From: Dehalococcoidales bacterium
Lineage (GTDB): Bacteria > Chloroflexota > Dehalococcoidia > Dehalococcoidales > G020351185
Length of the DNA: 32,000 nt
Assembly: GCA_963674855.2 (NCBI GenBank)
Contig: CAXXST010000001.1
Coordinates: 307,252 to 339,251 of the forward strand
Reading direction: 5' to 3'
Shown: piece by piece, positions 14,400-31,116 of the stretch
Numbering within the stretch: position 1 is the first letter of the stretch
Layout: each line of letters begins with the position of its first letter
Program-made: the position numbers and the translations under genes
The notes under the pieces: generated by a model
Database searches by the model: none
What the model was told of the DNA's origin: nothing
Seen by the model: only the letters and a program-made list of their open reading frames with translations

Positions 14400-15641
14400 C
14401 TAAAGCGGCTCACCGGAAGCCTGCTCTATTATAAGCTCTTTGCCGTATTTCAGCAGTGTCTTGCCATAGCTTTTGGAAAACTTCTTATCTTCAATATAGG
14501 CTTTAAGGGCATCAACCGGCGTTATTTCTTCGGCGTTGCAGCCTTCCAGTCTGGCGCGGTTTTCACGCTTGATGTCCCAGGCAACGGCGAAGTAATACGC
14601 ATCTTTAACGGCGTCTCTGATTTCATTGTTTATAATCTGCCCGTTGCTTTCCTGCGAAAGGCTGATATGCAGGCGCACGATGGCGTCTTTTATATCGTGT
14701 TTGGCGATGGCTTCAAGTATCGTTGCCGTTGGCTGCTGGTTGTCCGGTTTTATATCTACCTTGATGGTTAAAAAGCGGCGCCCCTCCAGCTTGTGAAAGT
14801 TGTAAGAAACCTGGCGGCTGCCGGTTTTTTTATCGGTTTTTATTTCAACAAGATAGAAACCCTTTTCGTCTTTTTCGTCACCGAAGTCCAGCCTTTCAAG
14901 GCTGCCGGCATAAATTACCGGCGGCGTTTCGTTAAGCACCTGGTGGCGGTGGATATGCCCCAGTGCGATATAATCAAAGGCGGGGTTTGAAACGTTGCCC
15001 GGCAGCAGCACCTGTTCCTGCCCGATGGTCATTGAATCCTCGCTGCCGATGCGCGCGCCAGATACCCAGATATGAGCCGCCAGTATGGAAGGCAAAGCCG
15101 TGTCTAGCTTTTCAGCCTCGGTCTTTATTATGCGTGTCAGCACGTCCTGCATCTTGTGGTTAAGCTGCTCAAAATTGAGGTTTTTGGCATCTTCCTTGCT
15201 GAGCAGCGCACTGCGCCTCAGCCAGGGGAGAGCTGTAATCTGGACGATGCCGCCTTTTGTTTTAACCTTGTGGGTGGTGGGGCGATCAGCGACATAGACA
15301 TTTTCAACCGAAAGCGTATCATATATCTCTGTAGTGGTGGCGCGCCCAGTGGCGTTGGGCAGGTCGTGGTTGCCGATGAGCAGAAAAACAGAGATGCCGT
15401 TTTCTGAAAGGCGTTTTATACGGCGGGCGAACTCGCGCTGCTGGGTTTGGCTGGGGTCCCGGCTTTTAAAAGCATCGCCGCAGAAAAGAACCAGGTCCAC
15501 CTTTTTATCAACGGCAAAGTCCACCAGTTTGTCAAAGGTAGCCAAAAAATCATGAAAGCGGGTTGAAAGACCGCTGGCGGAATCTATCTTCCCGTAGCTT
15601 TCAACTCCCAGGTGCAAATCTGCGAAGTGGATTATTTTCAC
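14400..15641 (-). CDS. sbcD: Mre11/SbcD-type metallophosphoesterase nuclease
   Basis: Calcineurin-like nuclease motifs are present: HFADLHLG, CGDAFKS, IGNHD, GHIHRHQ. The C-terminal capping region is SbcD-like. GTG start. No SbcC/Rad50 ATPase gene lies on either side. Confidence 0.85.
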   Translation of the reverse strand: MKIIHFADLHLGVESYGKIDSASGLSTRFHDFLATFDKLVDFAVDKKVDLVLFCGDAFKSRDPSQTQQREFARRIKRLSENGISVFLLIGNHDLPNATGRATTTEIYDTLSVENVYVADRPTTHKVKTKGGIVQITALPWLRRSALLSKEDAKNLNFEQLNHKMQDVLTRIIKTEAEKLDTALPSILAAHIWVSGARIGSEDSMTIGQEQVLLPGNVSNPAFDYIALGHIHRHQVLNETPPVIYAGSLERLDFGDEKDEKGFYLVEIKTDKKTGSRQVSYNFHKLEGRRFLTIKVDIKPDNQQPTATILEAIAKHDIKDAIVRLHISLSQESNGQIINNEIRDAVKDAYYFAVAWDIKRENRARLEGCNAEEITPVDALKAYIEDKKFSKSYGKTLLKYGKELIIEQASGEPL

Positions 15642-15668
15642 GAGTTAAATCCTATACCCCATTTTATA

Positions 15669-15767
15669 AAATCTCCCTTAATCCCTCTTTATTAAAGAGG
15701 GAAACAAATAACCTCTCCCTTTATTAAAGGGAGAATGAGAGGGATTTTACTAAGGGGCTTTTCCCCT
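15669..15767. repeat. mosaic hairpin repeat, locus A (M3 unit plus degenerate M2 hairpin)
   Basis: M3 unit spans 15669-15747 and contains two 9-bp/3-nt-loop hairpins: tccctctttATTaaagaggga (15682-15702) and tctccctttATTaaagggaga (15714-15734). It is followed by aggggcttttcccct (15753-15767). The M3 unit matches locus B in the same orientation. Confidence 0.85.
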
Positions 15768-15794
15768 GTGCGCCCCCTTTTCACCATAATTATA

Positions 15795-16172
15795 CTATAC
15801 TACAGCCGAAATGATAGCGCCGGCAATATAGGCGACAACCCACCAGCCGTAGGCAAATCTGGTATACATATGCAGGCGGTGCGGCACGGCGCCGGTTTTA
15901 TTCTTAAGCCAGTGTTTCCATATCAACACGGCGTCAATCAGCATAACCAGCAGTGCTGAATACCCCAGCAGCCCATGAAAGGTAATGGGGATATTAGAAG
16001 AATTTATAATCATAAGGGCGGTGGCGCTGATATCCAGCGTGACACCGACGGTGAGGTAAAAAAGAATGCGTTTATCAAGCATCCCTTTTCTTTGCTCATT
16101 GATAACGCCCGCCGAATAGAATATAAGGGCGCATGTAACCACAACAACAGCTTGCATAAGGCCAGAATTCAA
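15795..16172 (-). CDS. small four-TM integral membrane protein (HsmA/TIGR03987-like, tentative)
   Basis: 125-aa ORF with four hydrophobic helices. TTG start at 16172 with AAGGAG 6 nt upstream. Repeat loci A and B flank it on both sides. Confidence 0.7.
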   Translation of the reverse strand: MNSGLMQAVVVVTCALIFYSAGVINEQRKGMLDKRILFYLTVGVTLDISATALMIINSSNIPITFHGLLGYSALLVMLIDAVLIWKHWLKNKTGAVPHRLHMYTRFAYGWWVVAYIAGAIISAVV

Positions 16173-16217
16173 TGCAGTCTCCTTAAAATATTATAGATAT
16201 AATCCTATCCCCCTGTA

Positions 16218-16405
16218 TCCCCCTTCCCCTTGGGAAGGGGGAGGAGTTTATTGAGGGGCTTCGCCCCTCAAACTCCCCTTTACCCCTAATTCAGGAAAGG
16301 GCGGCGGGTGGGAATAGATAAAGTTTTAAATCTCCATTAATTCCTCTTTTATAAAGAGGGAAATAAATAGCTTCTCCCTTTATTAAAAGGAGAATGAGTG
16401 GATTT
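16218..16405. repeat. mosaic hairpin repeat, locus B (M1 + M2 + M3)
   Basis: M1: 11-bp stem tcccccttccc/gggaaggggga (16218-16242). M2: 9-bp stem ttgaggggc-ttc-gcccctcaa (16251-16271). M3: 16328-16405, which differs from locus A by 9 substitutions and 1 indel over 79 nt by hand alignment. Confidence 0.85.
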
Positions 16406-16409
16406 ATTT

Positions 16410-17774
16410 CTAAAAACCGGTTCCGTGGCTGCCGCCGGGGGGTAAAATCTCAAAGGATTCGCCGCCCAGCTTGGCAGCCAGTGTATTGCTTAATTCGCTG
16501 ATGGGGATACGCAGTTGCTTCATGCTGTCTCGCTCGCGCAGGGTAACCTGTTTGTCATCAAGGGACTGGAAATCAACTGTTATACAGTATGGCGTGCCGA
16601 TTTCATCCTGCCTTCGATAACGCCGCCCGATGCTTTGGGCGGTGTCATAGCCAATCATCCAGCGTTGGCGCAGCTCGGCGTGAATCTCGTCGGCTATCTT
16701 TAACAGCGGTTCCTTCTTGCTCAATGGCAGAATGGTGGCTTTATAGGGCGCCAGCGACGGGTGCAGCTTCATTACCACCCGGATATCATCTTTGTCTGGC
16801 TCTTCCGTATAGGCGTCATGCAAAAACGCCAACACAGAGCGGTCAACACCGGCAGATGGCTCTATTATATATGGGTATATGTGCTGGTTGGATTCTTCGT
16901 CCAGAAGCGTCAGGCTTTTGCCGCTGGATTCGGCGTGCTTCACCAGGTCAAAATCGCCGCGGTTGGCGATGCCTTCAAGCTCTGACCAGCCCATCGGGAA
17001 TAAATATTCAATATCGCTGCAACCACGGGCATAATGCGCCAGCTCTTCTTCGCCGTGGCAGCGCAGTTTCAGGTTTTCTTTTTTAATGCCCAATCCCAGA
17101 TACCAGTTGAGGCGTTCGTTCTGCCAGTAATCAAACCATTCCTTATCCGTATCCGGCTTGACGAAAAACTCCATCTCCATCTGCTCAAACTCGCGGCTGC
17201 GGAAAATAAAGTTGCCGGTGGTTATCTCGTTGCGGAAGGACTTGCCAATCTGGGCGATGCCGAAAGGCAGTTTTTTACGGGTGGTGTTAACAACGTTCTG
17301 GAAGTTTACGAAGATACCCTGGGCGGTTTCCGGGCGCAGGTAAACAATACCGGCGTCGTCTTCAACGGGTCCCATAAAGGTCTTGAACATCAGGTTGAAC
17401 TGGCGCTCTTCGGTAAGCTCACCGCCGCAGGAGGGGCAGACATCACCCTCAAGTTCATCTGCGCGCCACCTCATCTTGCATTCTTTGCAGTCCACCATCG
17501 GGTCTGAAAAGCCCTTGAGGTGCCCGCTGGCTTCCCATACCTGCGGGTGCATCAGTATGCTGCTGTCCAGCCCCACGATATCACTGCGTTTTTGAACCAT
17601 TGCCTGCCACCACGCCTGTTTTACGTTGCGTTTGAGCTCTGCCCCCAGCGGACCGTAGTCCCAACAGCTGGATAAACCGCCGTAGATTTCACTGCTGGGG
17701 AAAATAAAGCCGCGCCGGCGGCAAAGGGAAACAAGTTTTTCCATGCTGGTTTTATCTGGATTAAAGTCAGGCAA
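16410..17774 (-). CDS. glyQS: glycine--tRNA ligase (homodimeric GlyQS type)
   Basis: 454 aa with [14 protein letters not shown] and class II synthetase motifs. TTG start at 17774 with AAGGAG 6 nt upstream. Confidence 0.92.
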
Positions 17775-23909: not shown

Positions 23910-24971
23910 TTACCCTTCCTCCTCTTCCGTAAAAGTCTCTTCTATAACCCCCCCGCCCAGCACCTCCTCCTTGCGGTAAAAAACGATAGATTGCCCCGGG
24001 GCGGCAGCCATTTGCGGCTGGGCGAGTTTTATATAAGCTGTGCCGTCATCTACATACATACCGATATTGCTTTCAGCGGATTTATAGCGAATCCTGGCTG
24101 TTATACCCGTTATGCTCTGCGGGATTATTTCGCCGGATATCCAGTTCAGGCGGCTGGCGGATAGCTGGCTTGTAAAAAGCTGCTCCTGTGTGCCGGCAAC
24201 CAGCTTGTTGTTAGCGAAATCAATACGTAAAACATAGAGACGGTTGTCTGCGGATAATCCCAGCCCCTGCCTTTGCCCGATAGTATAATGAGACAGCCCC
24301 TTGTGCTTACCCAGCACCTTGCCGTCTGTATCAACTATATCTCCGGGGCTGGATGGAACTTTTTCGTTTATAAAAGCGTGGTGGTCATTATCGGGTATAA
24401 AACATATATCCTGGCTTTCCTTTTTAAGAAAATCATTAAAGCCAATCTCCTTTGCCATTCTTTTGACCTGGCTTTTATACAATCTCCCCAGCGGAAACAT
24501 CAGATGGCGCAACTGCTCCTGTTTCAGGGTGTAAAGAAAGTAAGACTGGTCTTTATTATGGTCAACACCTTTAAACAGGCGGTAGATATTATCACAAAGC
24601 TCAATGCGCGCGTAATGACCGGTAGCCATGAAATCCGCCCCAAGCTCCAGCACCTTTTTAAGCAGGGCGTCTAATTTTACATAATGATTACAAACAACGC
24701 AGGGGTTGGGTGTTCTGCCTTGCCTGTACTCGTCGCAGAAGGGAATAATCACCCTCTCTCTGAAAAACCGGCGTAAATCTACCGTATGGTGCTCAATGGA
24801 CAGTTTTTCAGCGACCTTGCGCGCGTTTTCAAGGTCTTTGTTATCTTCATCATGTTTAAGCAGCATGCTGACGCCGATAACCCGGTAGCATTGCTCCTTG
24901 AGAATAGCCGCCGTTACAGAGGAATCCACCCCTCCGCTCATGGCTACGGCAACACATTTCTGGGGCATCAT
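23910..24971 (-). CDS. mnmA: tRNA 2-thiouridine(34) synthase
   Basis: PP-loop VAVAMSGGVDSSV, GRTPNPCVVCN and ATGHYAR in 353 aa. ATGA overlap with the tmk stop. Confidence 0.92.
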   Translation of the reverse strand: MMPQKCVAVAMSGGVDSSVTAAILKEQCYRVIGVSMLLKHDEDNKDLENARKVAEKLSIEHHTVDLRRFFRERVIIPFCDEYRQGRTPNPCVVCNHYVKLDALLKKVLELGADFMATGHYARIELCDNIYRLFKGVDHNKDQSYFLYTLKQEQLRHLMFPLGRLYKSQVKRMAKEIGFNDFLKKESQDICFIPDNDHHAFINEKVPSSPGDIVDTDGKVLGKHKGLSHYTIGQRQGLGLSADNRLYVLRIDFANNKLVAGTQEQLFTSQLSASRLNWISGEIIPQSITGITARIRYKSAESNIGMYVDDGTAYIKLAQPQMAAAPGQSIVFYRKEEVLGGGVIEETFTEEEEG

Positions 24972-25588
24972 TTCCTCCGTGGCAGCAGGGGGGTTACTTT
25001 TTGCCAGATTATTTCAGCTATTTTATCTATATCCTGTGCGGCGTCTATTATAAAAAAACGTTCGGGTTCTGCGGCTGCCAGTTCAAGATAACCCTGCCGC
25101 ACTTTTTGGTGGAATACGGCGTCTTCTTTTTCAAAGCGGTCCGGTTTTTCATTCTTGCGGTTAAAGCCTTCTTCTACGGACAAATCCAGCAGAATCGTCA
25201 GGGCTGGTTTCAAGCCCTGTCTGGCGGTATTGTTAATTGCCCTGACTGTTTCAAGGTCAAGCCCGCGGGCATAGCCCTGATAGACAGTGGTGGAATCATC
25301 AAAGCGGTCACAGATAACAATCCTGCCATTCGCCAGCTCGGGCTTTATAACTCCTTCAACAAGCTGGCTGCGGGCGGCGTTGAAAAGAAAAAGCTCGGCA
25401 AGGGGGGTAATGTGCATATCCTCCGCCCATTTCAACAGGCGGCATATTTCATCACCTATGGGCGTTCCGCCGGGTTCAAATGTTAAAATGGCGGGGATAC
25501 CCTCACGGCACAGCCTTTTATAAAGAAGTTTAGATTGCAGGCTTTTGCCGCAACCCTCGCCGCCTTCAAATGTTATAAACAGGGACAA
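24968..25588 (-). CDS. tmk: thymidylate kinase
   Basis: P-loop FITFEGGEGCGKS plus DRF and LID-region motifs. TTG start at 25588 with AAGGAG (25595-25600) 6 nt upstream. Confidence 0.9.
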   Translation of the reverse strand: MSLFITFEGGEGCGKSLQSKLLYKRLCREGIPAILTFEPGGTPIGDEICRLLKWAEDMHITPLAELFLFNAARSQLVEGVIKPELANGRIVICDRFDDSTTVYQGYARGLDLETVRAINNTARQGLKPALTILLDLSVEEGFNRKNEKPDRFEKEDAVFHQKVRQGYLELAAAEPERFFIIDAAQDIDKIAEIIWQKVTPLLPRRK

Positions 25589-25604
25589 ATCCCTCTCCTT
25601 TAAT

Positions 25605-25730
25605 CCTCTCCCTTTGGAAAAGGGAGAGGGAATATTTTATTAAAGGGGCTTTGCCCCTTTAGAACCCCTTTAAAATCCCCTTCTTTATGATGCCCCGTTT
25701 TTTAATAAAGGCAGGGGAAATATTATAAAA
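25605..25730. repeat. mosaic hairpin repeat, locus C (M1 + M2 + degenerate M3-like tail)
   Basis: M1: 11-bp stem cctctcccttt-gga-aaagggagagg (25605-25629). M2: 9-bp stem taaaggggc-ttt-gcccctta (25641-25661) followed by GAAC. The tail aaaatcccc...aataaaggcagggga is a weak M3 relative. Confidence 0.8.
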
Positions 25731-25759
25731 AGTGCCTTACCCTTTCAGGCTGTTCTTGT

Positions 25760-27340
25760 TTACTCTCTATATATTCTGACCCGCCGGTTGGGGTCTTTGC
25801 CGCTGCTGCTGGAGGCAAGCTGGTTTCTTTCGGCAATCAGGTGCTGCAAACGGCGTATATAGGCGCTCTGCGGGCTAAGCTCAACCGTATCGCTTTCCCG
25901 CATAACCTGGCTGGCGGCTTCCTCGGCTTCACGCAGGGCATAATTCAGCGCGCCGGAGCCCCGATTGCTTTTAACGTTATTACCGCCGCCGGGGTGAACG
26001 GTAGCCAGCATCTGCTTCAACTGCAGCGGCGTATGCTTGCGCAGCACGTAAATGGGTAGATTGGCGGCTTCGGCGTCACGGATTTTCTGCGGTTTGCGGC
26101 GATAGTAACTCTTGGAAGTTACCATAAGCTCTGCGTCATTCAGGCTGTCCGCCAGATTGATGTTTATGTGCATTTCCCTGGCTGCCTGCTCCAGCCTGAC
26201 CCGGTTTATACCAAAGGGATAGAGCCTGGGGGTAGCTTTATCAGCGGCTGGAGGGGCTTTATCTGACGGGGCTTTTGTCTTTTTTAGCGGTTTATCTATC
26301 TTGACGCTAACTTCGCCTTCTTCTTCCAGCCAGCGTGTTTCGGTGGCGCTGGGTTGACCGCGCAGCGTATCATCTACCGCCTGAGAAACATCCGGGTGGA
26401 CGGCGACCTTATATCTGTCCTGTATCTCAACCACGATGTCAAAGGTGGGCGGAGATTTGCGCTCCAGTATTGTCTTGCGGCTGTGCCGTCTTTTGGCTTC
26501 CTCGTCTCCCAGGGTTACCGCCTGTATGCCGCCGACAAGGTCTGAAAGCGTCGGGTTGAGCATCAAGTTTTCCAGTGTGTTGCCGTGGGCGGTGCCGATG
26601 AGCTGCACGCCGCGCTCGGCGATGGTGCGTGCCGCCAGAGATTCAAGTTCGGTGCCGATTTCATCAATAATAATAACTTCCGGCATATGGTTTTCAACGG
26701 CTTCAATCATAACCGCGTGCTGCATTGACGGCGTGGCTACCTGCATGCGCCTTGCATGACCGATAGAGGGGTGGGGGATATCGCCGTCTCCGGCTATCTC
26801 ATTGGAAGTATCAACGATTACCACACGTTTTTTAAGGTCATCTGCCAGCACACGGGCAGCTTCGCGAAGCATGGTTGTCTTGCCGATGCCGGGTTTGCCC
26901 AGCAGTAAGATGCTTTTACCGGACTGGATAAGGTCTTCAATAATCTTTATAGTGCCGAAAACCGCCCGCCCCACGCGGCAACTTAACCCAACAATATCTC
27001 CCTTGCGGTTGCGGATGGCTGAAATGCGGTGCAGGGTGCGCTCTATACCTGCCCTGTTATCGCCGCCGAAGCTGCCGATGCGGGAGGTAACGTAATCAAT
27101 ATCCTCCTGGCTTATCTCCTGCGGGCTTATGATAATTTCACGGTTTAGGAAACGGGCGTCGGAGGGACGCCCCAGGTCAAGAACTACCTCCAGTAAATCA
27201 CTGATGTCTTCCTGCTGCCGCAATGGCTTGCGGATATGCGGCGGCAGGATATCAAGCAGGGCGTCCAGATCATCATTGGTTACTTTTGGCAAAGTCAGCC
27301 TCTTCTTACTACCATCCTCTTTGCGCCAGCAGTTCCTCAT
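25760..27340 (-). CDS. AAA ATPase with C-terminal R3H nucleic-acid-binding domain (SpoIIIAA/ycf45-like)
   Basis: Walker [10 protein letters not shown] and Walker B VIIIDEIG. The N-terminal [13 protein letters not shown]...VVLDLGRP is SpoIIIAA-like. The C-terminal [31 protein letters not shown] is an R-x3-H (R3H) motif. ATG 27340 overlaps pdxS by 32 nt; the alternative TTG 27292 follows GAAGAGG and avoids the overlap. Confidence 0.8.
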
Positions 27341-28190
27341 CCGGGATTTGCTTTATATCCAAACCGGGCATGGCATCACCCAGCCCTTTGCTTACCTCTG
27401 CAATGATACCGGCATCCTGGTAATGCGTTACCGCCTTAACAACCGCCTTTGCCATCTTCTGCGGTTCAGAAGACTTAAAGATACCAGAGCCAACAAATAC
27501 CCCTTCCGCCCCCAGTTTCATCATAAGGGCGGCATCGGCAGGCGTAGCCACACCACCGGCGGCAAAGTTAACCACCGGCAGCCTGCCGCTATCATGCACC
27601 TGCTTCACCAGTTCCAGCGGCGCCCCCAGTTCCTTGGATATAGCCATCAGCTCGCTATCACAGGCTGAAACAACCCGTTTAATATCACCCATAACCGTGC
27701 GCATATGCCTCACCGCTTCTACTACATTACCCGTACCGGCTTCCCCCTTGGTCCTCATCATCGCCGCCCCTTCCCCGATACGCCGCAGTGCCTCTCCCAG
27801 GTTACGGCATCCGCAGACAAAAGGCACTTTAAAATCATGCTTCCACACATGGTTAACCTCATCGGCAGGGGTTAATACCTCTGATTCGTCTATATAATCC
27901 ACACCGATAGCCTGAAGCACCTCTGCTTCAACAAAATGCCCGATACGGCATTTAGCCATAACCGGTATGGTTACCGCTTTCATAATATCTTCTATAATCC
28001 TGATATCCGCCATCCGCGCCACACCGCCGGCAGCCCTTATATCCGAAGGCACCCTCTCCAGCGCCATCACGGCACAAGCCCCGGCATCTTCGGCTATCTT
28101 AGCCTGCTCGGCATTAATAATATCCATAATGACGCCGCCCTTAAGCATCTGCGCCAATCCTGTCTTAACCTTCCATGTGCCGCTTTCCAT
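27309..28190 (-). CDS. pdxS: pyridoxal 5'-phosphate synthase lyase subunit
   Basis: 293 aa with [40 protein letters not shown] and [16 protein letters not shown]. No pdxT is adjacent. Confidence 0.93.
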
Positions 28191-28285
28191 AGCTATATAA
28201 CTCCTTATCCCCAGACAAGCCTATTTTACTCTCTGAACACCCCTGTTATCAAGCCGATATATACTAATCAGAACAACCTCTCCCC

Positions 28286-28503
28286 CTTAATCTCCCCTAT
28301 CCTTACTAGGATAGGGGAGATTAAGAAAAGGGGCTGCGCCCCTTTAGAACCTGCTTTATATATTTCAGGCGAAATCCCCTTATTTTATAAAATCTCCCCT
28401 AATCCCTATTTAACAAAGATGGGGAATAATAGCTTATCCCTTAAAATCCACCTAACCCTTCTAAAGATGGAAACAGATAACTTCTCCTTTTGTTAAAGGG
28501 AAG
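28286..28503. repeat. mosaic hairpin repeat, locus D (long M1 palindrome + M2 + duplicated M3-like units)
   Basis: M1: perfect 18-bp stem with a 4-nt loop, cttaatctcccctatcct-tact-aggataggggagattaag (28286-28325). M2: aaaggggc-tgc-gccccttt (28327-28345) followed by AGAAC. M3-like region: 28389-28503, opening with ataaaatctccc as in locus A and containing two sub-units that share ...aaagatgg(g/a)aa.a.ata(g/a)ctt.tcc. Confidence 0.85.
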
Positions 28504-28851
28504 TACACTATTGACAGTGAAATTCTTAATTGAATTACCCAAGGGTAAGAGCCATAGATTATTGCCAAACCATTAAATAGTATCTGTGAAAGCATTCATT
28601 TGGTGCTAATCCATACTTATTGCCTTTGTTTAATCCATCCTGAATTAAAAAAATGCTTTATCTACCAGTGGTTAATCCCTGTTTTGATTTGTGATACAAT
28701 TCTAACTGCGAGGCAAAAGTATATGGTGATAAAGCCCACAACCACGACGCCACAATGCCTTTACTAACATTTAGAGGGAGAGATTAGAGTTCTTATATTA
28801 GGTTAAGGTAACATTCCAGAGGTCTGTTAGCCTTTCTAACACACGTCCCCA

Positions 28852-28947: not shown

Positions 28948-31116
28948 ATGGACAAGATTGATACAAAAAGCGATAAAGAAAATCTTCTTAAAGAATTGAC
29001 ATTACTGCGCAAGCGTGTGACTGAACTTGAAGAGTTCAAAAAGCATAATGGCAGGTTAAACGATATCTTCTCCTCTCTTAAAGACCTGGTCTTTGTCTTG
29101 GATAGGGACGGGGTATTTACCGAATTCTATGCTCCCAGTGAGGAACTATACCTGCCTCCTGAAGATTTCATAGGCAGGAAATACTTCGATGTTATGCCTC
29201 CCCACCTTAATACTCTTTTTAGTAAAGCATTTAAAAAGAATAAGAATGGTAAGGTAGACGAATATTCGTATACGCTCGAGATGGCAGGCAAGCAGCAATG
29301 GTATTATGCCAAACAGTCTCCATTATTTACGGAAGGTCAATTTGCTGGCGCAGTAGCTGTAATCAGGAATATCACTGAGCATAAACAGCTTGATGAAAAG
29401 TTGAAAGAAACCGAAGACAGGTATCGTACTCTTATTGAACTTGGCAACAAGATAGGCGAAGCCGTTATCATGCTCCAAGACATTAATGGCAAAGAGGGTA
29501 TACATACCTATGTAAGTGCCCAATGGCCTCAAATCACAGGCTACTCCAAAAAAGAACTGTTGGGAATGTCTTTCTTTGGACTGGTAAGCCCTCAATTCCG
29601 AGGAGCTTCATTAAAGAGGCATCGGACAAGGATGCACGGTAAGACCATTCCGGATCTTTTTGAATCAGCCATTACCCGCAAGGACGGCGCCGAGATATCA
29701 ATAGAACTTACCAGCGCAGTTACCATCTATAAAAATAAACCAACCAATGTTGTGTATATAAGAGATATAACCGAGCGGAAAAATATGCAGGCAGAATTAA
29801 AAAAATATCATTCATACCTTGAAGAGATAATAGAAGAACGAACCCGGGAACTTGAAGAAACTAAAAATGAACTGGAACGAAAGATAAAAGAGTATGAAGA
29901 TTTGCAGGATGATATGAATTTTATGATGGATAATATACCGCTTTGCCTCATTATCAAGGATAAGAACGGCAGGTTTTTACGTATGGACAAGAGGAGCAGG
30001 GACAGCTTAATGCCAGCTGATGTTATTGGCAAAACTGTATACGATATTCCTGCGTTAGATAGAGACTATTGTGATTTTGAGAATAGATGTGACCAGCAAG
30101 TAATAGAAACCGGCGAACCGCAGGAAGTCATATTTAGCTTTAAAGCAGATAACAGGCAAGGTTTACGGCGTTCCTCTACAGGCCAGCCTAAAGAAGTTCA
30201 ATTTAACGTTGGAGCTAAAATTAGAAAAAGCGCCGAGAAATGGCGTAAAATTGTTAGAATTCCTCACAAAGACAAGAATGGTAATGTTGACCAATTTATT
30301 TTGCTTTCTTTCGATATTAATGATATCAAATATGCAGAGAAAGAGATTAACAGGCTCTACAATGAGGAAAAGAGGTTAAGGAAAAAGTTAGAAAAGCAAA
30401 TGGAGCAAAAACGTGATTTTATCCGGTCTTTAGTGCATGAATTAAAGACCCCGCTTGTGCCACTTATCGGTGCAAGTAGTATGCTGGCGGATAATCTAGG
30501 TGAAGAAGCGAGGCAAAACGCCGCCAGGGTTGTGCTTACAGGCGCCCATAAACTGGAAAAAAGGATTGACGAACTTCTTGACCAGACCAGATTGGAATTA
30601 GGCACCATGAATCTTTCTTTGGGACAGGTAGATGCAGAAAAACTGTTAATCCAGATATTCGATTATATGCAATATCGCGCCGCTAATAAAAAGCAGGTTT
30701 TTAAACTGGATATACCCTCATCATTACCTGAAATATGGGCGGATGAAGACAGATTGGGGCAGGTCATTGTTAACCTGCTGGAAAACGCGTTCAGATATAC
30801 GCCGGAAAAAGGACTGATTACACTGGGCGCAAGCTGCTCAAATAACGAATTGATAATTTATGTTAGGGATAATGGCATCGGCATAAGCAATCACAGGCAA
30901 AAAAACATTTTTCTTTCATACAATAGAGTATCCAGCAAGAAAGATAAATTAAGCGGATTGGGGCTCGGTTTAAACCTATGTAAAATGCTGATAGAACTTC
31001 ACGGGGGGAGCATATGGGTTGAAAGCCAAAAGGGCAAAGGCAGTGTCTTCAGTTTTACCATGCCACTTAAAAGTGAAACTAAGGATAACATTATAATTAA
31101 AGGAGCTTCACTTTGA
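28948..31116 (+). CDS. soluble multi-PAS sensor histidine kinase
   Basis: 722 aa with no hydrophobic TM segment. It has coiled-coil stretches and PAS-like blocks, then H-box HELKTPLVPLIG, N-box LLENAFRYT, G1 VRDNGIGIS and G2 GLGLGLNLCK. About 40% GC on a 60-nt sample. Confidence 0.88.
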   Translation: MDKIDTKSDKENLLKELTLLRKRVTELEEFKKHNGRLNDIFSSLKDLVFVLDRDGVFTEFYAPSEELYLPPEDFIGRKYFDVMPPHLNTLFSKAFKKNKNGKVDEYSYTLEMAGKQQWYYAKQSPLFTEGQFAGAVAVIRNITEHKQLDEKLKETEDRYRTLIELGNKIGEAVIMLQDINGKEGIHTYVSAQWPQITGYSKKELLGMSFFGLVSPQFRGASLKRHRTRMHGKTIPDLFESAITRKDGAEISIELTSAVTIYKNKPTNVVYIRDITERKNMQAELKKYHSYLEEIIEERTRELEETKNELERKIKEYEDLQDDMNFMMDNIPLCLIIKDKNGRFLRMDKRSRDSLMPADVIGKTVYDIPALDRDYCDFENRCDQQVIETGEPQEVIFSFKADNRQGLRRSSTGQPKEVQFNVGAKIRKSAEKWRKIVRIPHKDKNGNVDQFILLSFDINDIKYAEKEINRLYNEEKRLRKKLEKQMEQKRDFIRSLVHELKTPLVPLIGASSMLADNLGEEARQNAARVVLTGAHKLEKRIDELLDQTRLELGTMNLSLGQVDAEKLLIQIFDYMQYRAANKKQVFKLDIPSSLPEIWADEDRLGQVIVNLLENAFRYTPEKGLITLGASCSNNELIIYVRDNGIGISNHRQKNIFLSYNRVSSKKDKLSGLGLGLNLCKMLIELHGGSIWVESQKGKGSVFSFTMPLKSETKDNIIIKGASL

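Follow-up and report, generated by a model that had tools for sequence, protein, structure and literature searches.

Dispersed repeats with the layout of intrastrand triplex motifs in intergenic gaps of a Dehalococcoidales genome

What are the short, hairpin-bearing repeats that recur between the genes of a 32,000-nt stretch of DNA from an uncultured Dehalococcoidales bacterium? The stretch, called the window here, is G000:C1:307252-339251 (GenBank assembly GCA_963674855.2, contig CAXXST010000001.1), and genome G000 is 100% complete, 1.53 Mb long and held in two contigs, C1 and C2. An earlier note on this DNA had described three hairpin blocks, M1, M2 and M3, that recur in four intergenic gaps (loci A to D, at 15642-15794, 16173-16409, 25589-25759 and 28191-28510), and these blocks are indeed present. 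It had also flagged as unusual that the stems pair a homopyrimidine arm with a homopurine arm. We think it probable that the modules of loci A-D belong to a dispersed family of ‘intrastrand triplex motif’ repeats, which would fold as a triplex in single-stranded DNA. The odd stems would then be explained because their arms belong to an intrastrand purine-motif triplex motif of the kind known as BoxC/PIT/TMECO (PMC4666352).

The earlier note overlooked a third, mirror-image purine tract that stands beside the purine arms. An alignment of the copies showed that the tract beside the hairpin varies with the arm as its mirror, not as its complement. A module consists, on one DNA strand, of a pyrimidine arm (Y), its Watson-Crick purine arm (R) and this mirror-image purine-rich tract, separated by two loops that are usually 3 nt each. 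The third tract is antiparallel to the purine arm, with G opposite G and either A or T opposite A, which is the arrangement that a purine-motif (reverse-Hoogsteen) triple helix made from one strand would require of its sequence. In the terms of PMC4666352, the third strand lies downstream in class II and upstream in class I. M1 is a single longer module of 11-12 triples, M3 consists of two 9-triple modules on opposite strands, and M2 is a class I module of 6-8 triples. A 33-mer module reads TCTCCCTTTATTAAAGGGAGAATGAGAGGGATT, and a 42-mer M1 module reads CCCCCTTCCTTT-CCG-AAAGGAAGGGGG-CTA-GGGGGATGGATT. Under this rule, the constant ...GGGATTT end is accounted for by T.A-T triples that it would form with the loop-proximal AAA of the purine arm, the seeming mismatch between GGGGGATGGATT and AAAGGAAGGGGG in M1 is permitted because A or T is allowed opposite A, and the AAAC/AGAAC tails of M2 are part of the class I third-strand layout. 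The M3 copy of locus A, which lies between sbcD and the gene for an HsmA-family small membrane protein (hsmA), is laid out as follows.

Positions 15667-15749: M3_A, in which two different 9-triple motifs form an inverted pair, third strands outermost, between the sbcD start and the hsmA stop; nhmmer score 81 bits.
Positions 15670-15702, minus strand: class II motif of M3_A, with Y TCCCTCTTT, loop AAT, R AAAGAGGGA, loop TTA and third strand AGGGAGATT; 9 perfect triples, 0 mismatches.
Positions 15714-15746, plus strand: class II motif of M3_A, with Y TCTCCCTTT, loop ATT, R AAAGGGAGA, loop ATG and third strand AGAGGGATT; 9 perfect triples.

The type TCTCCCTTT-ATT-AAAGGGAGA-ATG-AGAGGGATT, whose triples are G.G-C, A.A-T and T.A-T, is the most frequent in genome G000 (24 copies). 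Folded as DNA with ViennaRNA, which counts Watson-Crick pairs only, M3_A gives -16.7 kcal/mol (z = -3.7).

Does the triplex rule hold beyond this copy? A scan for perfect class II motifs, set to accept first loops of 3-8 nt, second loops of 1-6 nt and no fewer than 8 triples, found 66 in genome G000 compared with 0, 0 and 0 in three second-order Markov shuffles, and class I motifs of the M2 type number 14 compared with 1, 1 and 0, their types again co-varying. The 66 class II motifs represent 15 types of purine arm and third strand, all of which abide by the rule (e.g., AAAGGGAGA/AGAGGGATT, AAAGAGGGA/AGGGAGATT and AAAGGAAGGGGG/GGGGGATGGATT). Among the matches listed for other genomes, 802 kb around 119 loci contain 239 perfect motifs of 48 types, also without an exception to the rule; the first loop measures 3 nt in 201 of the 239 and the second in 208, and most G000 motifs have 3-nt loops likewise. 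Stems and loops lie within the 6-15 nt and 1-6 nt, respectively, that were taken to define the intrastrand triplex kind.

When hairpins were picked by the hairpin alone, a full-length perfect third strand was found at a spacing of exactly 3 nt on 55 of 161 hairpin sides in G000 and on 225 of 622 in the loci of other genomes, versus 0-17 at other spacings, and a control in which the third strand was read parallel to the purine arm showed no peak at 3 nt. Over all hairpin sides, G lies opposite G in 51-55% of cases, versus 15-21% in a control displaced by 10 nt. Opposite A, the third strand carries A and T about equally, the T being seen, e.g., in the ATT ends and in GATGG. Such a T would place an A in the pyrimidine-motif third strand of the complementary strand, so the reading under selection would be the purine motif. 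We also considered, and dropped, a pyrimidine-motif or RNA triplex in which the 5′ leader would be the Hoogsteen strand, since the frequent T opposite A puts A in that leader, which suits only the purine motif on the other strand.

Purine arm and third strand have also changed in pairs. In M3_B, the M3 copy of locus B, AAAGGGAGA/AGAGGGATT became AAAAGGAGA/AGTGGATTT and AAAGAGGGA/AGGGAGATT became AAAGAGGAA/ATGGAGATT, the pyrimidine arm lagging behind in both, and a matched change from G/G to A/A separates the orthologous M1 copies in the glyS-sbcD gap of two relatives (G001 and G005). Every third strand is the mirror image of the hairpin it belongs to, even though the outer stem of M3 is thereby left with 1-2 mismatches. 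The outer stem, i.e., the terminal inverted repeat, was therefore rejected as the cause of third-strand conservation; own-hairpin mirroring, together with the retention of third strands in single modules, means that pairing of the terminal repeats does not explain the third strand.

An nhmmer profile seeded with M3_A shows M3 to be a dispersed repeat of ~81 nt with 59 loci in genome G000, 35 of them full length. These, with further copies in relatives, bear out the picture of a dispersed, modular, mosaic family drawn in the earlier note and run counter to its own ground for refutation, that no further copies exist; its recurrent M3 unit in loci A and B is confirmed by 88% identity over 74 nt (15669-15747 vs. 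16328-16405). The ends of M3 are terminal inverted repeats of 7-13 bp. As M3 is nearly palindromic and nhmmer scores it on both strands (81 vs. 65 bits), the remark that all copies share one orientation has little meaning. Adjacent inverted pairs of two different module types number 19 in genome G000, with the third strands outward in all 19.

The asymmetry of the stems extends to the whole genome. Perfect hairpins with a stem of at least 8 bp give 157 scan records with an all-pyrimidine 5′ arm versus 17 with an all-purine 5′ arm, compared with 3 and 3 when the same scan is run on a Markov shuffle; the records collapse to 89 distinct hairpins, near-pure arms counted in. Since a pyrimidine/purine palindrome is identical on either strand, this asymmetry is a property of the duplex, and the choice of strand is irrelevant. 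The claim that every stem is homopyrimidine/homopurine holds as a genome-wide asymmetry but not for an 18-bp hairpin of locus D, which is mixed. GC skew was too weak, with the genome in two contigs, for the motifs to be placed on leading or lagging strands.

The remaining modules of loci A-D are the following.

Positions 15751-15786: decayed M2-like remnant of locus A, a 5-bp hairpin inside AAGGGGCTTTTCCCCTG followed by the C-rich run GCGCCCCCTTTT, read from the sequence (direct-repeat families D7 and D10) and missed by the strict triplex scans.
Positions 16204-16242, minus strand: M1_B, class II motif with Y TCCCCCTTCCC, loop AAG, R GGGAAGGGGGA, loop TAC and third strand AGGGGGATAGG.
Positions 16251-16278, minus strand: M2_B, class I motif with third strand GGGGAG, loop TTT, R GAGGGGC, loop GAA and Y GCCCCTCAA (GCCCCTC); 6 triples.
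Positions 16329-16405: M3_B, a decayed inverted pair (16329-16361, minus strand; 16373-16405, plus strand).
Positions 25588-25629, minus strand: M1_C, class II motif with Y CCTCTCCCTTT, loop TCC, R AAAGGGAGAGG, loop ATTAAA and third strand GGAGAGGGATT; 11 perfect triples.
Positions 25641-25668, minus strand: M2_C, class I motif with third strand GGGGTT, loop CTA, R AAGGGGC, loop AAA and Y GCCCCTTTA (GCCCCTT); 6 triples.
Positions 28286-28325: hairpin of locus D, an 18-bp stem of mixed sequence with no third strand.
Positions 28327-28345: M2_D, its third strand decayed to 4 triples by hand count.
Positions 28388-28501, plus strand: two decayed tandem M3-like copies of locus D; nhmmer score 31 bits each.

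M1_B has an 11-bp stem and 10 of 11 triples (8 perfect in the strict scan), and its orthologues are present in the same gap of G001 and G005. Both halves of M3_B keep 9 of 9 triples despite one Watson-Crick mismatch each. The putative TTG start of tmk is where the third strand of M1_C ends, and this strand may have a secondary use as the candidate ribosome-binding site of that gene. In locus D, the hairpin and M2_D gave no match in the triplex scans, and the segment 28286-28351 folds at -27 kcal/mol (z = -8.8). The earlier note is right that M3 is diverged and duplicated there, the copies being decayed and in tandem, with the qualification that a pdxS duplication ends in the second copy and cuts it at 28500, within the purine arm of that copy's second hairpin. 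Other details need amending. The M1 arms were described as purely C/T and A/G, which fails at 28286-28325, where A's in the left arm make it not strictly pyrimidine. In M2, the stems close with a G-C pair, and the arm of locus B is GAGGGGC, not AAGGGGC. The order M1-M2-M3 applies to loci B and D but not to C, where no M3 is detectable after M2.

Is this a known kind of repeat? Holder et al. (2015, Nucleic Acids Res 43:10126; PMC4666352) described bacterial ‘intrastrand triplex motifs’, including the BoxC/PIT/TMECO repeats of E. coli and of further Proteobacteria. TMECO is a class II motif, CCCTCNCCC-N3-6-GGGNGAGGG-N3-GGGNGAGGG, i.e., a pyrimidine arm followed first by a purine arm and then by a reverse-Hoogsteen purine strand, and the isolated TMECO strand folds into a triplex as seen by nuclear magnetic resonance (NMR). 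The authors found no association of TMECO with transposons, phages or plasmids, and TMECO loci were more variable than control intergenic sites (PMC4666352). Both families place three blocks on one strand, with stems of ~9 nt, a first loop of 3-6 nt and a second of 3 nt, follow the purine-motif pairing rule and exceed shuffled genomes strongly. Both are intergenic without orientation bias, have loops that are less conserved than the stems, often form inverted pairs of two different types, differ very unevenly in copy number among relatives and have no known associated transposase; an occurrence at variable genome sites, suggested here by three loci, may be common to both as well.

While alike in layout, the two families differ in three respects. 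First, the stems here are TCTCCCTTT / AAAGGGAGA / AGAGGGATT and variants, marked by A-T triples and by an ATT(T) end that is constant, whereas those of TMECO are CCCTCNCCC / GGGNGAGGG / GGGNGAGGG; the window modules do not match the TMECO consensus proper because of these different stems. Second, three module types (9-triple pairs, 11-12-triple singles and 6-8-triple class I modules) are combined here as a mosaic. Third, the host here is an uncultured member of the Dehalococcoidales, near-identical modules occur in several phyla, and the family is known from sequence. Some loci of other genomes, among the matches listed, also carry E. coli-type GGGAGAGGG/GGGTGAGGG motifs. By this comparison, the repeats belong to a known but little-studied kind, as a new sequence family that comprises three module types and is spread widely over taxa; a search of the literature turned up no account of repeats like these in Dehalococcoidia.

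Where do the copies lie relative to genes? Between crude open reading frame (ORF) calls lie 51 of the 59 M3 loci, and the remaining 8 overlap nothing but unverified ORFs of short length (72-165 aa). The repeat-bearing gaps comprise 27 tandem, 9 convergent and 7 divergent ones, roughly in proportion to the genome-wide totals of 1081, 227 and 228, so the repeats show no preference for the ends of transcription units. Within tandem gaps, 18 repeats are antisense and 11 sense to the genes by hand tally. Such intergenic placement without bias in orientation or gap type is that of the triplex-repeat kind.

These placements bear on a reading at the level of RNA, in which the modules would act as terminators, 3′-end stabilisers or switches that hide ribosome-binding sites, the purine tracts being the ribosome-binding sites themselves. 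A loose terminator scan does flag the second M3 hairpin, on the minus strand, just past the glyS and hsmA stops, and the third strand of M1_C is placed where tmk needs a ribosome-binding site. REP and ERIC repeats stabilise mRNA. However, the repeats occur in both orientations relative to the genes and also stand in the divergent gaps, which have no need of a terminator; the T-tracts are interrupted, unlike those of intrinsic terminators, and the spacer varies across genomes. The suggestion of bidirectional terminators is not upheld, the gap types being in proportion to the genome and the T-tracts not clean. A hairpin by itself leaves the co-varying third tract unexplained, and the opposite-strand pyrimidine-motif reading is broken by the A/T choices. 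Rfam returned no match in the window at the gathering score, only sub-threshold chance matches at E up to 5. Purine-motif triplexes form in DNA, not in RNA, and PIT elements lack promoter or terminator activity (PMC4666352). An RNA-level function is, in our judgement, quite unlikely.

The mirror symmetry raises a different alternative, namely a feature of duplex DNA: either H-DNA formed under supercoiling at the mirror repeats, or a platform for a nucleoid protein or another DNA-binding protein. The third strand and the purine arm (on the other strand, the 5′ leader and the pyrimidine arm) do form a homopurine-homopyrimidine mirror repeat with a 3-nt spacer, and the stem sequences are conserved across genomes. 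For H-DNA, however, the mirror repeat alone suffices, yet the inverted repeat is kept as well, and mirror arms of 8-12 nt are short. Proteins that bind duplexes read direct or inverted symmetry rather than mirror symmetry, and many stem sequences are tolerated provided that the three blocks match. A duplex-DNA feature thus seems highly improbable.

How widely is the family distributed? M3 matches were found in 16 of the 31 genomes of the relatives search (G000 included, i.e., 15 of 30 relatives), which span many families of the order, and in 15 of 301 sampled genomes of the class (E <= 1e-6), the first-look candidates ranging from 0 to ~120 per genome. Identity reaches 86-87% to copies outside the order, in genomes of the same class. 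Class-wide, the stems, the 5′ leader and the 3′ trailer are conserved in sequence, whereas the loops and the spacer vary; the leader is the complement of the third strand of the left module, and the trailer is the third strand of the right module. An exact-pattern scan of one genome per species gave at least 119 stretches, and among the matches listed most are from Dehalococcoidia or Chloroflexota. Others listed are in metagenome-assembled genomes (MAGs) labelled Betaproteobacteria, Burkholderiales, Usitatibacteraceae, Gammaproteobacteria, Syntrophaceae, Elusimicrobiaceae, Omnitrophota, Dadabacteria and Moraniibacteriota, and one lies in a closed Gemmatimonadota chromosome.

The proteobacterial contigs (58-64% G+C) carry the same two module types within a larger palindrome, with the third strands inward and ~27 nt apart, which argues against mis-binning. 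In the Betaproteobacteria/Burkholderiales MAG contigs L069, L072, L076, L104, L111 and L117, this is a ~200-nt palindromic repeat with outer arms TTGAAATTC...GAATTTCAA and inner arms GGCACTT...AAGTGCC. A decayed M3-like copy in the pca operon was also found on Acinetobacter indicus plasmids; on plasmid pAI01 (NZ_CP044019.1; L180 1490-1575), the copy is full length and sits in a 96-nt gap between pcaF and the gene for a CoA-transferase subunit B, in the pca catabolic operon of a cultured bacterium. The triplex rule leaves only ~9 purine-arm bases free, so that finding identical modules in distant phyla is less of a surprise than a count of 29 fixed bases would make it. The shared pairing of the two module types still favours common descent or transfer.

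Such a spread could point to a mobile element. The modules might be a non-autonomous element resembling MITEs (miniature transposable elements with inverted repeats) or repetitive extragenic palindromic (REP) sequences, with AAATCCC...GGGATTT ends and subterminal hairpins that a transposase provided in trans would recognise as it copied the element to new sites, the mirror tracts being part of the recognition site; this reading is compatible with the triplex reading. The terminal inverted repeats, the patchy copy number among relatives, the high identity outside the order and the presence of the same modules in MAGs of other phyla and on Acinetobacter plasmids are all in its favour. However, no target-site duplication is visible in the aligned flanks of the 35 full-length G000 copies or of ~40 copies elsewhere, a check that the earlier note had proposed. 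No enzyme came to light either. The search for a REP-associated tyrosine transposase (Y1/RAYT) gene that it had also proposed gave 0 matches in a six-frame PF01797 search of G000, where the control search gave matches in 6 of 14 named genomes, and neither DDE_Tnp_1 nor TnpB-type genes were found in G000. The only multi-copy transposase of this genome is of the rve family, in 3 copies, and its ends are unrelated to AAATCCC. Beside the element, no gene family recurs among the ORFs of the 119 loci listed, which come from many taxa (the top cluster covers 7 loci), and nine recurrent ORF clusters, judged by eye without a domain search, are mostly housekeeping-like, with one DUF559-like endonuclease and none transposase-like. 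Moreover, the differences between copies are concentrated in the loops and the spacer rather than evenly spread. Such an element is possible but unlikely.

The comparison with named families is in keeping with this. Like MITEs (Correia, RUP, ERIC/IRU), the repeats are ~80-200 nt long and intergenic, with terminal inverted repeats, long stem-loops and variable copy number; unlike MITEs, they show neither a target-site duplication nor a parent insertion sequence with matching ends, and conservation is concentrated in three matched blocks. With the RAYT-mobilised REP sequences, bacterial interspersed mosaic elements (BIMEs) and REPINs, they share short intergenic palindromic units with a conserved tail by the hairpin, arranged as singles, as inverted pairs with spacers and as mosaics. 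The resemblance to REP/BIME elements noted earlier thus stands for the architecture, with alternating units, characteristic spacers and admixture of other motifs (19 inverted pairs; M1-M2-M3 mosaics; mixed arrays), but not for membership of the REP/RAYT group, since the genome has no cognate RAYT gene. The family also lacks a GTAG-type head, has strictly purine/pyrimidine stems and a co-varying mirror strand that REPs do not have, and recurs with the same sequence across phyla, whereas REPs are usually species-specific. The rve-type insertion sequence itself occurs as three near-identical copies of 1146 nt (99.9-100%; G000:C1:100177-100467, C2:708917-709207 and C2:721119-721409), two of which share an extra 49 nt on one side.

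Do the repeats mark places where the genome varies? The genes around loci A-D all lie on the minus strand from sbcD through pdxS.

Positions 14400-15641, minus strand: sbcD.
Positions 15795-16172, minus strand: hsmA, encoding a small membrane protein of the HsmA family (TIGR03987, E = 1.8e-15, which falls short of the curated cut-off), with repeats on both sides.
Positions 16410-17774, minus strand: glyS.
Positions 24968-25588, minus strand: tmk (dTMP kinase), with a putative TTG start.
Positions 25760-27340, minus strand: SpoIIIAA-like ATPase gene.
Positions 27309-28190, minus strand: pdxS.
From position 28948: a divergent histidine kinase gene.

The glyS-sbcD gap has four states in five related genomes: 17 nt in G003 and G004; ~260 nt with M1-M2 only in G001; ~1170 nt with M1-M2 and a 275-aa gene in G005; and 768 nt, arranged as M3-M2′|hsmA|M1-M2-M3, in G000. 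The G005 gene (L012 527-1354), which has a nuclease-like D...E.K motif by eye and comes from a sister genus, occupies the gap that holds hsmA in G000, and hsmA is absent from this gap in 4 of 4 relatives (G001, G003, G004 and G005), with no match in a tblastn search of L009-L013. G002, of the same genus, was considered as an ‘empty-site’ genome and rejected, its single contig being a scaffold joined by 100-N runs, one of them inside glyS; the repeats are probably unassembled in such a scaffold, and missing matches there are not evidence of absence. In the FAH-HAD gap, the gene content is different in each of G000, G003 and G005.

The third case is a duplication of pdxS with ~310 nt upstream, in which window positions 27299-28500 match the 1202 nt of G000:C2:350495-351696 with 98.9% identity. 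The match breaks off at AAAGGG, window position 28500, inside the purine arm of an M3 hairpin; past this breakpoint, the C2 copy runs on with a complete M3 end and then a different downstream region. In G000, the FAH-HAD gap carries two near-identical M3 copies, inverted to each other and with extra flanks in common (C1:392578 and C1:393943; L014 1079-2526, G000:C1:392578-394025), around two genes, one for a 126-aa membrane protein and one for a 226-aa protein that looks DNA-alkylation-repair-like by eye. Beside the second of these M3 copies are arrays of leader and pyrimidine-arm fragments without purine arms.

How might an intrastrand triplex account for these observations? When DNA is transiently single-stranded during replication, repair or recombination, a module could fold as a hairpin clamped by its third strand, and selection, or the mode of spread, would keep the three blocks matched. 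As has been proposed for BoxC/PIT/TMECO, the repeats would be neither terminators nor regulators but probably self-propagating or tolerated structural repeats. They may make intergenic sites prone to stalling, breakage and illegitimate recombination, and accessory genes and duplications would for that reason end beside them. Both folding of single strands in vivo and a role as rearrangement hot spots are what we infer from the anatomy and the variable gaps, and the three variable G000 loci agree with the variability reported for TMECO (PMC4666352).

Several points weigh against this account. The triplex is deduced for these sequences by comparing them, not from physical evidence, and for TMECO itself the triplex was seen only for isolated single strands, in vivo dimethyl sulfate footprinting having failed to detect it (PMC4666352). 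The copies are related, so that the counts of motifs make independent events seem more numerous than they are; what is independent is the set of distinct stem types, along with the few paired changes. For M2_B, an extended Watson-Crick stem is a rival to the third-strand reading. The purine tracts look like ribosome-binding sites, and their retention could be due to a role in RNA. The link to genome variability consists of three loci, which are anecdotes without a matched control set, and a triplex gives no account of how copies spread. A bolder proposal, which we hold to be rather doubtful, takes the three-way matching in dozens of stems and at least 8 labelled lineages as the signature of DNA triplexes that are formed and selected in living bacteria. 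The modules would then serve as the functional ends of a class of element so far undescribed, one that spreads or recombines via folded single-stranded DNA and is recognised by a widely conserved replication or repair enzyme, not by a transposase of its own.

For annotation, ~60 loci in a streamlined 1.5-Mb genome matter, as similar repeats of many uncultured bacteria may otherwise be misread as terminators, small RNAs or REP elements. Co-variation of purine arm and third strand over many stem types in several phyla is an independent line of evidence, from evolution, for the importance of the third strand in vivo, and the modules supply defined oligonucleotides for testing triplex formation. 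The repeats are also candidate plasticity hot spots in Dehalococcoidia, in that they mark a duplication end and gaps with turnover of accessory genes (hsmA, the nuclease-like gene and the DNA-alkylation-repair-like gene).

A second, unrelated repeat, ...TCAGTCATATTATTTATATGA(A/T)CTCCTTTTCGACCTTT..., occurs at 20 sites in G000 (e.g., C1:39122, 117347 and 124654; C2:296945 and 574267). Read on the reverse strand, it comprises a conserved leader, a ribosome-binding site AAGGAG and an ATG start (MTEKE...), suggesting that it is probably the shared 5′ region of ~20 paralogous genes.

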